A DNA stretch of 64,000 nt from Escherichia coli (GCF_024223415.1 NZ_CP100501.1); one strand, 5' to 3'. Shown: positions 9,267 to 30,435, counted from the stretch's first letter. A program made the numbers and translations. The notes: generated by a model from the letters alone, not told the origin.

Positions 9267-10365
9267 TGTGATTATCCTCGGTATCTGTGGCTTTCAGGAA
9301 CAGGCTGACGGTAGTGGCGTCTTTCAGGATGCCGGACGGCAGGTGCCAGCCGGTATCGGATAACACCCATGGGGTACCGCCAAAACCGAACTGGCGGAAA
9401 GCCTGGTTATTGACATCGATGGCAGCACGAGCAGCGGTCAGACACTTTTCATCCGGTGCAGCCGGTGCATCGCCGGTGGGTGCCATACCACCGTCTGCGG
9501 AATACAGCTGATGCCATCCGGTCGCCCGTTTTTGTGCGTCCGGTTCACACAGCAGTGGCGCAGTCCGGTTTGTGCTGGCCTCTCCGCCGATTACGGAGAC
9601 CGGATAAATCACCACGCTGAATTCCCGGGCCAGTTGCTTAAGCGCGGGCTCCAGAAGACGGCAGTTGATGCATGCGGGGTCAAGGAAGGCGTAGAGTGTG
9701 CGTTCATGACCAGTGGAGAGATTAATGGTGAACATACCCCGGTCCGCGTTGCGTTTAAGTACAGTGGCCAGATTACGGCGGGCTTCAGCGACCAGAGTAT
9801 TTTTGTCTGCTGTTATCGCCGGGGTAGCGGATGTCTCCTGCATTTCCTGTGATGCCGGGTGAACGATTTCATTTTTCGTCTCTGACGGGGCTACTGACCG
9901 GACAATTTCCTTGTCGATGTGTAATGGTGCTGTTTCTGTTACGGATTCTGTGACAGGTACCCTGAGAGGGGAATCGCTGTCCGGTTTCAGTAAAATATAT
10001 CCGGCTGTTACCGCTGTCAGAAGTGCCAGCACTAATCCTGCACCGTATATCAGCCCTCTCATGAAGCTGGTTTTCCGGGCAGGAAGTTCTGCATATGCCG
10101 CGCTCAGACAGCTGTCAATCGCGGAGAGCATTCTGCCGATGTGATGTCCGGGACGTTCAGTATCAACGGTATCAACAAGCAGTGTTTCGGTTATTTCACG
10201 AAAAGGGGTGCTGAAGGACAGGTGCATCAGCCTGTTATTACGGTTAATCAGTGCGCCCAGTTCTGTAACCGGCAGGATGGCAATAACCTCCTGACCACCG
10301 TCAGGGTACAGGGCGGTCAGGGACAGGTGTTTATTGTTCAGTGTTGCAGTGTAGCGGATGGTCAT
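9247..10365 (-). CDS. trbB: periplasmic thioredoxin-fold protein, DsbC-like disulfide isomerase (TrbB-like)
   Basis: CxxC motif (CINC) within LDPACINCRLLEP; TM/signal-anchor segment; start overlaps trbA stop (ATGA); true start may be internal. Confidence 0.65.
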   Translation of the reverse strand: MTIRYTATLNNKHLSLTALYPDGGQEVIAILPVTELGALINRNNRLMHLSFSTPFREITETLLVDTVDTERPGHHIGRMLSAIDSCLSAAYAELPARKTSFMRGLIYGAGLVLALLTAVTAGYILLKPDSDSPLRVPVTESVTETAPLHIDKEIVRSVAPSETKNEIVHPASQEMQETSATPAITADKNTLVAEARRNLATVLKRNADRGMFTINLSTGHERTLYAFLDPACINCRLLEPALKQLAREFSVVIYPVSVIGGEASTNRTAPLLCEPDAQKRATGWHQLYSADGGMAPTGDAPAAPDEKCLTAARAAIDVNNQAFRQFGFGGTPWVLSDTGWHLPSGILKDATTVSLFLKATDTEDNHNEPASR

Positions 10366-24273: not shown

Positions 24274-24564
24274 TCCGGTAAGGATGAATCATCACTGTCT
24301 GATATTTTTTGATGCCACAGCAGGGGATGTGGCATGAAAAAACAGCAGAGGAAATAAATAATCTGTTGAGGGACAGGTGCGTATTTCTGTGTGATTACAG
24401 TAAATAATAAAAATGTAATAAGGTGGAAACACGCTGTCAGCTTAGTGAATTTACAGGCGGATAAGTGATTTTATTAATATGTACAACAATAGATTTTCTT
24501 CTTTTATTTTGTATAAATACCGGTGGGACATAAAAGAAACGGAGACTGCAGAGACAGAGATGAA

Positions 24565-24596
24565 GGGGTTCTACGCCGGAACCGCCGAAATTTCCG

Positions 24597-24602
<6 letters not shown>
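24565..24602 (+). repeat. Tn3-family terminal inverted repeat (tnpA-proximal end)
   Basis: Begins GGGG; tnpA stop codon lies inside it. Confidence 0.8.
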
Positions 24603-27027
<2,425 letters not shown>

Positions 27028-27118: not shown

Positions 27119-27694
27119 ATGACTGGAATCAAGATTGGCTATGCTCGTTGCTCCACAGACCAACAAGACCTAACTGCCCAGATAGATGCGCTGATAAATC
27201 TAGGCATTTCCACTGACAGGATCTATACAGACAAAGGACTGACTGGTTCAAACCGACAGAGGCCGGGCCTAGAACAGGCGCTTGCAGCGGTTCGAGAGGG
27301 AGATACGCTAGTTGTTCCAAAACTAGATCGTTTAGCCCGTTCAGTACCTGATGCAAGAGGTATTGCTGATATCCTACAAGCTCGAGGAGCGAAACTCGCT
27401 CTAGGGGACAGTATCTATGATCCAACAGACCCGATGGGGAAAATGTTCTTCAATATTCTTGCTACTTTTGCAGAGTTTGAAGGAGACCTTATTCGACTAC
27501 GAACTAAAGAGGGGATGGCTGTTGCCCGTTCAAAGGGAAAATTGAAAGGAAAACAGCCTAAATTATCTGAAAAACAACAAAAAGAACTATGCCGTATGCG
27601 TGATACTGGCCAGTACTCTATCAGCGATCTAGCGGAACTATTTACCGTCTCGCGTGCAACGGTTTATCGAACACTTTCACGAGGACAAAAATGA
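27119..27694 (+). CDS. tnpR: serine recombinase/resolvase TnpR
   Basis: 191-aa product with N-terminal catalytic region IGYARCSTDQQDL and C-terminal HTH (ATVYRTLS). Confidence 0.85.
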   Translation: MTGIKIGYARCSTDQQDLTAQIDALINLGISTDRIYTDKGLTGSNRQRPGLEQALAAVREGDTLVVPKLDRLARSVPDARGIADILQARGAKLALGDSIYDPTDPMGKMFFNILATFAEFEGDLIRLRTKEGMAVARSKGKLKGKQPKLSEKQQKELCRMRDTGQYSISDLAELFTVSRATVYRTLSRGQK

Positions 27695-27905
27695 CCGATT
27701 TAACTACACAGCAACATCTAGTAAAAATTGTCCATGATTATGCCTGCCCTCAAAAGGGTCATGGACAGTCCATCAAAGGTTCAAATGGATTACATCTGCA
27801 TTCAATACCCAGATTACTTCCGCTTTGCTAAATGGATAGAACGGTTGGCGTAGGGTATTGTTGATGGTGTAATTAAAGTTCCTAAAGATCATTAAAATAT
27901 CAGAT

Positions 27906-27936
27906 CGGAAATTTAGGCGGTTCCGGCGTAGAACCC
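27906..27936 (-). repeat. internal third copy of the Tn3-family terminal repeat (one mismatch), same orientation as the 30024 end
   Basis: CGGAAATTTAGGCGGTTCCGGCGTAGAACCC on the plus strand, followed by a partial AGAACCCC duplication. Confidence 0.7.
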
Positions 27937-27953
27937 AGAACCCCTTATCCGAA

Positions 27954-28817
27954 TTATTGTTCAGTTAACTTCATTTCGACAAGTAAAGGTAAATGATCTG
28001 AGACAGATGCATATGGCTTACTTTCAGGGGTCGCTCTATCTGACGGTTTAGGAATATATACATCTTTAATGTCCCATTTTTGAGCATTTGATGTAAGTAT
28101 ATAATCAATTTTCCTGTCTGGATTCCATGATGGTGCCGTGTACTTCAATTCCTTATCAGTGTCATTGAACCATGCTGTTAAATCCAAGTACTCTGTTGAT
28201 TGAGGTGGTAAATTAAGATCACCCACTATAATTGGAAGTGCATTTTTAAACTGCCAAGAAGAGAATTTTGTTTGAAGAGTTCTTACTTGCTCTGCTCGTA
28301 ATGGCTGCGTAGTGAAGTCCAAATGAGTAGTTACTAACATAACAGGCGCAGGATAATTAGGGACATCAACTTCTACAGCACAGGCCGCTCTTTGCTCCGC
28401 ACCTTTGATGTTAGGTAGTTCCATCCTTTTACTCAATTTCAAATCATACTTAGACAGTACTGCTGTACCATATTCCCCACCATCATGATCTATAGCCTTG
28501 CAGAAGTAATAATTCATTCCCAACTTATTAGCTATATACTCTGCTTGATTGACTGGGTTAGAACCCTCTTTACTAAAGTTCTTACCAGAACGCCTAGTCA
28601 TGTTATCAACTTCTTGCAGTCCAATAATATCAACATTCATTTTACGAATTGCTTCTACAATGGCATCAGTACTCCCCATTCTAGAGGCCATTATGTTATA
28701 TGACCCAACACGAATACTATCGGTATCTGCTGGACCATCCATGAGGCGATCAGAAGCTAAAGTTGAAGAGGAAAGAACTATAAACCCTATAACCGCAGCA
28801 ATGCTTGTTAATTTCAT
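27954..28817 (-). CDS. secreted endonuclease/exonuclease/phosphatase (EEP) family protein, low-GC cargo gene
   Basis: Signal peptide MKLTSIAAVIGFIVLSSSTLA; EEP-like motifs VGSYNIM near the N-terminus and SDHLPL near the C-terminus; composition much more AT-rich than the tra genes. Confidence 0.7.
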   Translation of the reverse strand: MKLTSIAAVIGFIVLSSSTLASDRLMDGPADTDSIRVGSYNIMASRMGSTDAIVEAIRKMNVDIIGLQEVDNMTRRSGKNFSKEGSNPVNQAEYIANKLGMNYYFCKAIDHDGGEYGTAVLSKYDLKLSKRMELPNIKGAEQRAACAVEVDVPNYPAPVMLVTTHLDFTTQPLRAEQVRTLQTKFSSWQFKNALPIIVGDLNLPPQSTEYLDLTAWFNDTDKELKYTAPSWNPDRKIDYILTSNAQKWDIKDVYIPKPSDRATPESKPYASVSDHLPLLVEMKLTEQ

Positions 28818-28818
28818 T

Positions 28819-29149
28819 TGGATTTGCCCCTATATTTCCAGATACCTGTTATCACTTAACCCATTACTGGCTTGCTGCCGTAGATATTCCCGTGGCGAGC
28901 GATAACCCAGTGCACTATGCGGATGCCATTCGTTATAATGCTCGAACGCCTCTGCAAGGTTCTTTGCTGCCGTTAACCCGTCTGGTTTGGGCATGACACT
29001 GATGTAGTCACGCTTTATCGTTTTCACGAAGCTCTCTGCTATGCCGTTACTCTCCGGACTCCGCACCGCCGTGCTCTTCGGTTCAAGCCCCAACATCCGG
29101 GCAAACTGCCGTGTTTCATTAGCCCGGTAGCATGAACCATTATCCGTCA
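28819..29149 (-). mobile_element. IS2 remnant (one end and the 3-prime part of insD), fused to IS1
   Basis: TGGATTTGCCCCTATATTTCCAGA terminal sequence at 28819; interior near-identical to 2294..2620 of the complete copy; ends 1 bp from the EEP gene start codon. Confidence 0.85.
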
Positions 29150-29444
29150 TCCATATCACCACGTCAAAGGGTGACAGCAGGCTCATAAGACGCCCCAGCG
29201 TCGCCATAGTGCGTTCACCGAATACGTGCGCAACAACCGTCTTCCGGAGCCTGTCATACGCGTAAAACAGCCAGCGCTGGCGCGATTTAGCCCCGACATA
29301 GCCCCACTGTTCGTCCATTTCCGCGCAGACGATGACGTCACTGCCCGGCTGTATGCGCGAGGTTACCGACTGCGGCCTGAGTTTTTTAAGTGACGTAAAA
29401 TCGTGTTGAGGCCAACGCCCATAATGCGGGCTGTTGCCCGGCAT
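28830..29444 (-). pseudogene. chimeric reading frame: IS1 InsB N-terminal part fused in frame to IS2 InsD C-terminal part
   Basis: Product begins [21 protein letters not shown]...VVIWMTD (IS1 InsB) and continues [22 protein letters not shown]... (IS2 InsD). Confidence 0.8.
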
Positions 29445-29693
29445 CCAACGCCATTCATGGCCATATCAATGATTTTCTGGTGCGTACCGGGTTGAGAAGC
29501 GGTGTAAGTGAACTGCAGTTGCCATGTTTTACGGCAGTGAGAGCAGAGATAGCGCTGATGTCCGGCGGTGCTTTTGCCGTTACGCACCACCCCGTCAGTA
29601 GCTGAACAGGAGGGACAGCTGATAGAAACAGAAGCCACTGGAGCACCTCAAAAACACCATCATACACTAAATCAGTAAGTTGGCAGCATCACC
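29150..29693 (-). mobile_element. IS1 remnant (left end, insA and the 5-prime part of insB)
   Basis: IS1 terminal repeat GGTGATGCTGCCAACTTACTGATTTAGTGTATGATGGTG (reverse complement) ending at 29693; insA intact; junction with IS2 at a shared CCGTCA. Confidence 0.85.
29363..29638 (-). CDS. insA: IS1 InsA
   Basis: 91-aa product [43 protein letters not shown]... recognised as IS1 InsA. Confidence 0.85.
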
Positions 29694-29985
29694 CGCGAAT
29701 TATTAAATAAATACCATGGGCTCTCTCGTATTAGCCAAAAATTAAGGCAAAAAGGCTCGAGACCTTAGTAATAGAACAAGAGCTTGAAGATACCGATGTC
29801 AATTGGTTTGAGACGTGCCTTAAAGCAAAAGAAAAAAAGTTTGGCAGCAGCTTCCCCCAAAATCAGAGTTAGAAAACAAAGATGATTCGTGACCTTCTAT
29901 ATTAAGGTCACTCGTTATCAATGATATTAGAGTGCATAAGCAAATAGAAAGAACATACCAGTCAATTACTTATACTTTCTTTGAC

Positions 29986-30435
29986 TCAATGTCGGAAATT
30001 TCGGCGGTTCCGGCGTAGAACCCCATGAAGTTGTTTTCTCCGTTTCCTTAATGAAAATTCAGCCAGAGGCGCAGCAGGATGATTATGTAGTGCACTTAAT
30101 GCCCTGTTGAACTGAAGTATTCCGGCAATATCCATCCATGAGAGATATTTATCGACGCTCACTGTGACGGTGATGCAGTCATGGGTACGGGATTTTTCAT
30201 GAATTTCTGCAGCCAGAAAGAGCAGCCAGCCGCCGTTAAATGCCGGGTGGCGGAGAATGAACCGGGCAATCTCTTTTTCAACTCCATCAGGCGGAATATC
30301 GTCCGTCAGTGTCCGGATAATAAAGTGCCGGAATGCATCAGCGGTGAACTGATATGCGGCAGAGAGGGTATCCATTTTTGTTCCTCTGTAAGTTGAGAGG
30401 GCCGGCAGAACGTCACCGGCACCGGTGTGTGTCAC
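29986..30435 (-). pseudogene. transfer-region gene (traS/traT-like position) whose 3-prime end is replaced by the transposon terminus
   Basis: The last 13 codons are encoded by the transposon terminal repeat; start overlaps the upstream ORF stop (ATGA); naming within traS/traT is uncertain. Confidence 0.5.
29987..30024 (-). repeat. Tn3-family terminal inverted repeat (cargo-side end)
   Basis: Exact reverse complement of the repeat at 24565; followed by the ATGAA duplication. Confidence 0.8.

Follow-up and report, generated by a model that had tools for sequence, protein, structure and literature searches.

Several described systems come close to the locus analysed here, a passenger gene in a Tn3-family transposon within a 64,000-nucleotide stretch of Escherichia coli plasmid sequence (NZ_CP100501.1, GCF_024223415.1; hereafter the window). 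The gene encodes a member of the endonuclease/exonuclease/phosphatase (EEP) superfamily, for which the closest known systems are the structural-genomics EEP 'metal-dependent hydrolases' (PDB 4ruw, 3l1w, 3g6s, 3mpr, 3teb), whose sole characterised relative is the mannosyl-6-phosphatase BT3783 of Bacteroides (4c1r). The neutral sphingomyelinases (human SMPD2, 8j2f; Bacillus and Staphylococcus sphingomyelinase C, beta-toxin) share their fold and their catalytic residues (Glu, His, Asp, Asn and Asp-His) with this protein. For the transposon we take three-repeat and miniature-partner Tn3 elements (Tn1721/Tn1722 type; TIME-mediated capture) to be the fitting comparison. The gene also lies beside an end of the insertion sequence (IS) IS2, and the promoter at the IS2 minicircle junction (Pjunc) strictly requires 17 nt between its hexamers, a distance provided by a 1-bp spacer after the tip of the right inverted repeat (IRR) (PMC3299598); fusion promoters formed by IS2 are documented for ampC, acrEF and neo (PMC9330008).

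The locus departs from each of these systems. The EEP protein of the window is only 17-24% identical to the structural-genomics hydrolases and BT3783, and its clade differs from them in having a polar insert (residues 77-91) and a conserved Cys pair. The transposon shares with the Tn1721/Tn1722 type and TIMEs its 34-bp GGGG-tipped repeats, its 5-bp duplication, its divergent tnpA and tnpR and the position of the passenger between an internal and an outer repeat; in contrast, its passenger is a single, putatively exported hydrolase rather than a resistance or catabolic module, its internal repeat is spoiled and its tnpA is inactivated. As in Pjunc and the fusion promoters of ampC and acrEF, the same right end of IS2 abuts the target with a 1-bp spacer, but the flanking hexamer is ATGAAA, that is, the start codon, which provides no -10 element and hence no fusion promoter, and the only strong promoter-like site is a hybrid of another kind, created 322 bp upstream where a deletion joined IS1 to IS2. 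The explanation that we favour, and consider probable as a whole, is that an intact gene of Vibrio origin, whose upstream region was remodelled by ISs, is expressed from upstream and encodes an enzyme acting on a phosphodiester substrate.

The EEP protein and its origin

The gene is a low-GC open reading frame (ORF) of 287 codons (GC about 0.38-0.40; elsewhere in the transposon GC is 0.42-0.50, and in the plasmid genes on either side 0.55-0.62) and the only intact non-transposition gene of the transposon, in which tnpA is split and tnpR is intact; both points agree with an earlier note on this DNA (Table 1). Its product matches the Pfam family Exo_endo_phos (PF03372) from residue 39 to residue 275 (E=1.2e-16; model positions 2-225 of 225), and the AlphaFold model, with a pLDDT of 92.7 that drops only at the N-terminal helix (3-18) and the polar insert, has the four-layer alpha/beta sandwich fold of the EEP superfamily. 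In an alignment of 37 sequences, comprising the EEP protein and its homologues, N41, E69, H165, D200, N202, D238, D274 and H275 are invariant, and these eight residues make up the catalytic and metal-binding set of the superfamily (Asn, Glu, His, Asp-x-Asn, Asp, Asp-His). Since the inspected transposon copies share the same ATG and the homologues are of similar length (283-300 residues, mostly 283-287), the ORF is not truncated. Neither missing catalytic residues nor an N-terminal extension among the relatives, which the earlier note had named as signs against an intact gene, was found. The EEP protein is thus a full-length, catalytically intact member of its superfamily. It is already catalogued as 'endonuclease/exonuclease/phosphatase family protein', and a search of the published literature for its accessions, or for Tn3-family passengers of such type, found nothing.

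The N-terminus has the architecture of a signal peptide, with K2, hydrophobic residues from 5 to 17 and T-L-A ahead of S22/D23. All close homologues have a hydrophobic N-terminus, which in two of them carries a lipobox (LAAC, LLGC), and the pair Cys106/Cys146 is conserved among the homologues and jointly lost in two. From this n/h/c architecture, its conservation, the two lipoboxes and the co-lost Cys pair, we infer that the protein is exported via Sec, with a mature form of 265 residues (pI 5.4). The earlier note had described a secreted hydrolase with a clean signal peptide; the signal peptide and the EEP family hold, while 'exported by Sec to the periplasm' is safer wording than 'secreted'.

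The protein is part of a small clade centred on Vibrionaceae and Aeromonas; its close relatives share 50-80% identity with it and are encoded in Vibrio, Aliivibrio, Photobacterium, Aeromonas veronii and one Pasteurella (P. atlantica). Chromosome 2 of Vibrio europaeus PP-638 carries a 2156-bp non-autonomous version of the whole element (L017 9423-11578) with the target duplication TAATT, which has both outer repeats and 410 bp of the tnpA 3' end, and neither tnpR nor IS1. This copy is 89-96% identical at the nucleotide level, and over the 864-nt gene it has 21 nucleotide but 4 amino acid differences, a pattern consistent with purifying selection. Upstream of the gene it contains an extra inward-facing repeat remnant (~9794-9812) that the enterobacterial copies lack. 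Two repeat tips thereby point inward at a segment made up of the gene and its upstream ~190 bp, the layout that would be expected from insertion of a miniature element on one side of a chromosomal gene and of a full transposon on the other. The nearest homologue of all (80% identity) is located between portal and holin genes on a P22-like prophage contig (L009), and its link to Vibrio is based on its 90% cluster, which holds proteins of V. tarriae and V. mimicus; when the contig was compared with phages by megablast, only a terminase segment of Stx-type phages matched. As far as sequence comparison goes, these relationships establish a marine Vibrionaceae origin of the gene. Together with its own upstream region it would have become the single passenger of a Tn3-family transposon, which would later have reached Providencia and E. 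coli plasmids.

Upstream rearrangement and probable expression of the EEP gene

The same gene (99.5-100% nucleotide identity) is present in 32 of 5426 complete E. coli genomes, always on a plasmid and never on the chromosome, mostly from poultry, and on about 30 PLSDB plasmids, including p12100-PER of Providencia rettgeri. In all top PLSDB matches the similarity to the window ends at 28819, the final base of the IS2 tip, which matches the native sequence by chance. Upstream of this position, the other plasmid copies inspected have an AT-rich sequence ending in ...AAAAATAACAAGGTGTAAAA-ATG, with the ribosome site AAGGTG-N5-ATG and promoter-like sites 45-130 nt upstream. This native region was seen in two plasmid copies (L001 and L002), which differ from the window copy by one nucleotide (G75R, at a variable position), and in V. 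europaeus (L017); about 60 bp of it are also conserved before the prophage homologue, indicating that the region belongs to the gene. In the window, the minus-strand junction reads ...TTAAGTGATAACAGGTATCTGGAAATATAGGGGCAAATCCA-A-ATGAAA, the IS2 tip ...GGGGCAAATCCA terminating at 28819 and the ATG starting at 28817. Thus the earlier note was right in placing the start codon one base from the terminal repeat and in stating that IS2 sequence had replaced the native promoter and ribosome site, since plasmid copies with the same ATG keep AAGGTG and the AT-rich upstream region. The 24-nt tip of the IRR is exact at 28819..28842 and has two copies in the window, where shuffled sequences gave an expectation of 0; the second copy belongs to the complete IS2 at 2294..3624. 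Compared with the published IRR (PMC3299598), the 41-bp repeat at the EEP gene is of full length with two internal mismatches. The complete IS2 of the window (1331 bp) has the same orientation as the remnant and is a possible source of the copy at the start codon; several differences near the right end separate the two.

Alignment of the remnant to the complete IS2 and to the upstream IS1 places IS1 sequence until 29150 and IS2 sequence from 29141, with TGACGGAT common to both. Eight draft E. coli assemblies and the plasmid pGF60-A contain both junctions, that between the two ISs and that at the start codon, in identical form, and an assembly artefact is ruled out by this agreement of nine independent assemblies. 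The exact EEP protein (R75; G75 in other copies) is indexed in 100 blocks of the collection searched, and the IS2 arrangement has become a fixed trait of an IncK2/Z plasmid lineage that has spread. On most plasmids an IS1, oriented as the IS1 of the window, lies 163 bp upstream of the EEP gene. The alignments establish the order and nature of the rearrangements, which would have run as follows. IS2 would have inserted across the EEP start codon, a presumed 5-bp target duplication (AATGA) regenerating the ATG. A microhomology deletion at TGACGGAT, between insB of the older upstream IS1 and orfB of the new IS2, would then have removed the right part of IS1, some 1 kb of IS2 and, with these, the native promoter (~160 bp) and ribosome site. 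The EEP gene would now be the last cistron of an IS-derived unit that comprises the left end of IS1, insA, insB'-'orfB and the IS2 IRR.

Upstream of the EEP gene, three independent IS arrangements are seen among E. coli plasmids (L060 950-1050; L062-L064 ~4120-4215; L065 2088-4997; L001/L002 ~7280-7300): IS1 at -163 in most copies, the end of an IS66-family element at about -55 in IncF plasmids, including one of avian pathogenic E. coli (APEC), and IS2 at -1 in the lineage of the window. In pMTY9803_IncBOKZ, two copies of IS1A bracket the gene. The recurrence of such insertions could reflect a preference for AT-rich targets or selection on expression.

Transcription would reach the EEP gene only from upstream, starting at a sigma-70-like site on the IS1/IS2 junction, at the weak, InsA-repressed IS1 promoter (a promoter-like site lies in the left end of IS1 at 29686..29659(-)) or by read-through from tra. 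The junction site takes its -35 from IS1 and its -10 from sequence across the microhomology and specific to IS2, and is absent from both parent ISs. It agrees with the consensus at 10 of 12 positions, as do only three sites, itself included, on both strands of the window (128 kb), and this rarity may be regarded as suggestive, post hoc support for a promoter. The EEP gene shares the minus strand with both the tra and the IS1 genes, and no terminator-like sites were found on that strand from 30100 to 27600. Ribosomes may be recruited by the AGGGG of the IS2 tip, or may re-initiate after terminating at the TAG of the insB'-'orfB fusion ORF, which lies 12 nt upstream of the EEP ATG in the same reading frame. 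Duplex energies with the 16S 3' end, computed on the -18..-1 segment, were -5.6 kcal/mol for AGGGG versus -3.9 for the native AGGU, and the start region is predicted to be at least as open as that of the native mRNA. We judge it rather probable that the EEP gene is expressed at some level.

Two other accounts of expression have to be weighed against this. According to the earlier note, the EEP gene may be expressed from a hybrid promoter formed by the IS2 end. In such a promoter, an outward -35 of IS2 would pair with a flanking -10; there are precedents in ampC, acrEF and neo (PMC9330008), and the IRR is indeed complete here. However, with the spacer of 1 bp, the -10 slot is ATGAAA (the start codon and the next codon), which matches TATAAT at two of six positions and lacks both A2 and T6; at 18-nt spacing the slot becomes TGAAAT, again without A2. 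Because the slot at 17 nt is poor and transcription would start within the signal-peptide codons, so that the full-length exported protein could not be made, there is no classical IS2 fusion promoter at this gene, and a sigma-70 consensus scan reported no site at the position of the IRR and the ATG. The proposed geometry fails, and we regard such a promoter as extremely improbable. The other account holds that removal of the sole promoter effectively silenced the gene, whose intact ORF would be a recent, undecayed relic carried by the plasmid. The loss of the native promoter-like sites and of AAGGTG fits this account, as does the decay of the transposon itself with its broken tnpA; the single nucleotide that separates the window copy from L001/L002 would have left no time for the gene to decay, and the ISs upstream in other E. 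coli plasmids (IS1 at -163, the IS66-family end at -55) fit selection against expression. Nevertheless, no terminator-like site separates the upstream promoters from the EEP gene, which points the same way as the tra operon and the IS1 genes, the Shine-Dalgarno-like AGGGG stands at a workable spacing before a start region predicted to be accessible, and the 10/12 sigma-70 site lies 322 bp upstream. Silencing is therefore unlikely in our view, though a serious contender.

Candidate substrates of the enzyme

The nearest structural neighbours of the EEP protein are uncharacterised bacterial EEP hydrolases. Behind them come human neutral sphingomyelinase 1 (score 24.7) and nocturnin, PDE12, CNOT6L, TDP2 and ANGEL2 (22-23), then exonuclease III-type enzymes (about 20) and bacterial sphingomyelinase C (19.3), and most remotely DNase1L3 (18.4), CdtB (16.9) and the inositol 5-phosphatases (up to 17.1); Foldseek and a profile search were concordant with this ranking. 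The subfamilies suggested in the earlier note fared unequally: DNase I, CdtB and inositol 5-phosphatases are the remoter structures, whereas neutral sphingomyelinase is nearer, with uncharacterised bacterial EEP hydrolases nearest of all. DNase I or CdtB enzymes, not being the nearest structural neighbours, were rejected as the class of the protein, as were the inositol polyphosphate 5-phosphatases, which are neither the nearest structures nor matched through an IPPc-type profile. The exodeoxyribonuclease III/AP endonuclease class was rejected on its scores (TIGR00633, 33.2 bits against a cut-off of 99.05; TIGR00195, 20.8 against 182.55), and the NCBIfam scan returned nuclease models only, all far under their curated cut-offs. 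A direct search of the PDB with the single EEP sequence gave only a chance, ovalbumin-related match (E=0.52), a family profile being needed for a useful search of that database. PHROGs and PADLOC gave 0 matches, leaving membership in a known phage-protein family or defence system unsupported; all neighbours in AFDB50 were unnamed and uncharacterised, and tblastn against GenBank phages returned only relatives of 24-30% identity in unannotated faecal phage contigs.

The genomic neighbourhood of the relatives gives some hints, although an argument from it is anecdotal because a scan of 100,044 species representatives yielded only six close relatives. Two GDPD genes flank the EEP gene in A. veronii and Aliivibrio, in a cluster that also contains a Ugp-like ABC transporter and a ROK regulator, and in Aliivibrio GalT as well; in a metagenomic gammaproteobacterium (L012) the EEP gene lies within a sugar ABC operon, and in P. 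atlantica it adjoins Stealth and LicD genes in a capsule locus. Taken with the structural ranking, these contexts suggest weakly that the substrate of this predicted metal-dependent phosphoesterase would be not DNA but a phosphodiester of a glycan, of a glycerophospho compound or of a lipid head group. A protein of 482-485 residues adjoins the EEP gene within the GDPD/ABC cluster of Aliivibrio and A. veronii (L013 6899-8356, L004 6929-8377; 71% identity); it gave 0 matches in Pfam and NCBIfam and is a candidate functional partner.

Nucleases are common among exported bacterial EEP proteins, and the enzyme could be a periplasmic or extracellular DNase or RNase that serves nucleotide scavenging, degrades biofilm or neutrophil extracellular traps (NETs), or acts against incoming DNA. 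The weak, sub-threshold NCBIfam matches to exonuclease III, MnuA and ExeM/NucH and the label 'endonuclease' on some homologues in databases speak for a nuclease, and the place of exonuclease III-type and DNase I-type structures in the third and last tiers of the ranking speaks for other substrates; we consider this activity distinctly unlikely. Bacterial neutral sphingomyelinases are Sec-secreted, and with the shared fold and catalytic set this would suit a virulence factor with sphingomyelinase or phospholipase-C-like activity on host membranes. The structural neighbours closest to the protein are the uncharacterised bacterial hydrolases, with the human enzyme in the second tier and bacterial sphingomyelinase C in the third, and we give this possibility little credence. 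A broader reading would make the clade a mobile exported phosphodiesterase of surface glycans or lipid heads (such as capsule, teichoic-acid-like polymers or host phospholipid derivatives), captured independently by a Tn3 transposon and a prophage, with its upstream region rebuilt at least three times under selection on expression and with the junction promoter driving the gene in the IS2 lineage; taken in its entirety, this reading appears very doubtful.

The explanation favoured here, an intact Vibrio-derived gene expressed from upstream and acting on a phosphodiester, has several points that weigh against it. The junction promoter is a consensus match only, and a 2.5-kb scan gave six sites with at least nine of twelve matches where 4.9 were expected; the IS1 promoter is a weak one whose repressor, InsA, is still intact; and transcripts would carry a 320-nt, poorly translated leader at which Rho termination could occur. 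The spread of the lineage may be hitch-hiking on a successful plasmid, in which case it would be uninformative on selection for the EEP gene. The predicted export was read by inspection of the N-terminus. As to the substrate, the contexts are mixed, with Photobacterium (where the gene lies beside umuDC) and V. fluminensis lacking a metabolic hint; the GDPD cluster adjoins an integrase gene and could have been co-transferred rather than functionally linked; and among the characterised enzymes compared, none was close enough to fix the substrate.

The transposon, its plasmid and the significance of the locus

The features of the locus are collected in Table 1. The element that carries the EEP gene is a Tn3-family transposon, inserted by transposition: its 34-bp terminal repeats read GGGGTTCTACGCCGGAACCGCCGAAATTTCCG.. 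and ATGAA stands outside both. Of the marks of this family, the GGGG-tipped inverted repeats (~38 bp) and the 5-bp target duplication are present, and an intact TnpA is not; tnpA is intact (3048 bp) in Providencia p12100-PER. The tip of the internal repeat, whose 34-bp match lies at 27904-27937(-), is spoiled at its GGGG end by a 7-bp tandem duplication (GGGGTTCT-GGGTTCT-ACGCC), which would inactivate this repeat and confine the passenger segment to the larger transposon.

Table 1 Features of the EEP locus and its transposon, in window coordinates.
Feature	Coordinates	Strand	Remark
Target-site duplication ATGAA, left	24560..24564		same pentamer at right side
Left terminal inverted repeat, Tn3-family	24565..24598	(+)	2 mismatches to right repeat; 0 expected by chance
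tnpA 3' fragment, last 80 codons	24597..24839	(-)	'Tn3 family transposase, incomplete' in pGF60-A annotation
IS21-family scrap interrupting tnpA	25059..25229	(+)	
tnpA 5' part, 622 codons, DUF4158 region	25159..27027	(-)	transposase not intact
tnpR resolvase	27119..27694	(+)	intact, 191 aa
Internal third copy of terminal repeat	27904..27944	(-)	tip toward EEP stop codon, 9 nt apart
EEP-family phosphoesterase gene	27954..28817	(-)	287 codons and stop; ATG at 28817..28815
Putative signal-peptide codons 1-22 (MKLTSIAAVIGFIVLSSSTLAS)	28752..28817	(-)	read from sequence; cleavage likely after TLA or TLAS
Single base A separating IS2 tip from ATG	28818	(-)	sequence
Complete 41-bp IS2 right inverted repeat (IRR)	28819..28859	(-)	outward -35 TGGAAA at 28835-28840
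IS2 remnant, last 323 bp (orfB 3' end and IRR)	28819..29141	(-)	aligned to complete IS2 at 2294-3624
AGGGG in IS2 tip, Shine-Dalgarno-like	28827..28831	(-)	9 nt before ATG; overlaps fusion-ORF TAG (28830-28832)
Fusion ORF, InsB (IS1) N-terminal part and OrfB (IS2) C-terminal part	28830..29444	(-)	Pfam DDE_Tnp_IS1 and rve_3
Sigma-70-like site TTGACG-17-GATAAT	29139..29167	(-)	spans IS1/IS2 junction, 322 bp upstream of EEP gene
8-bp microhomology TGACGGAT, deletion junction	29142..29149	(-)	common to IS1 insB and IS2 orfB
IS1 remnant: left end, intact insA (29363-29638), first part of insB	29150..29693	(-)	
Non-coding tail of passenger module	29694..29990		from IS1 to right repeat
Right terminal inverted repeat	29991..30024	(-)	
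Target-site duplication ATGAA, right	30025..30029		

The plasmid backbone is that of an IncK2/Z I-complex conjugative plasmid, and the transposon has interrupted a small hypothetical gene located between the traT side and traU (29986-30435, 24274-24564; 126 aa in the transposon-free relative p1095_scFOS). About 40 bp of the transposon repeat now form part of the resulting ORF, and the insertion may have a polar effect on traU-traY. Nucleotide identity between the window and pGF60-A, a plasmid of E. coli from chicken meat in Switzerland, is 99.93-99.96%. Within the broken tnpA, pGF60-A has an extra 1303-bp IS3-family element (L003 7352-8654) that is missing from the window (~25160); the two are sibling plasmids.

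Current understanding is unchanged by these results, as a generic protein label exists and the rearrangements are standard mobile-element events; the promoter-like site at the IS1/IS2 junction and the repeated IS remodelling of one upstream region are of mild interest as details. The locus is a worked example of two points, namely that an IS end beside a start codon need not make a hybrid promoter, and that a microhomology deletion between two different ISs can yield a near-consensus promoter. If the EEP enzyme is active in E. coli, an exported hydrolase would have moved from marine Vibrionaceae to plasmids of poultry-associated and some human E. coli, and, given its carriage on a transposon and its close homologue in a prophage, it would be a candidate niche or fitness factor.

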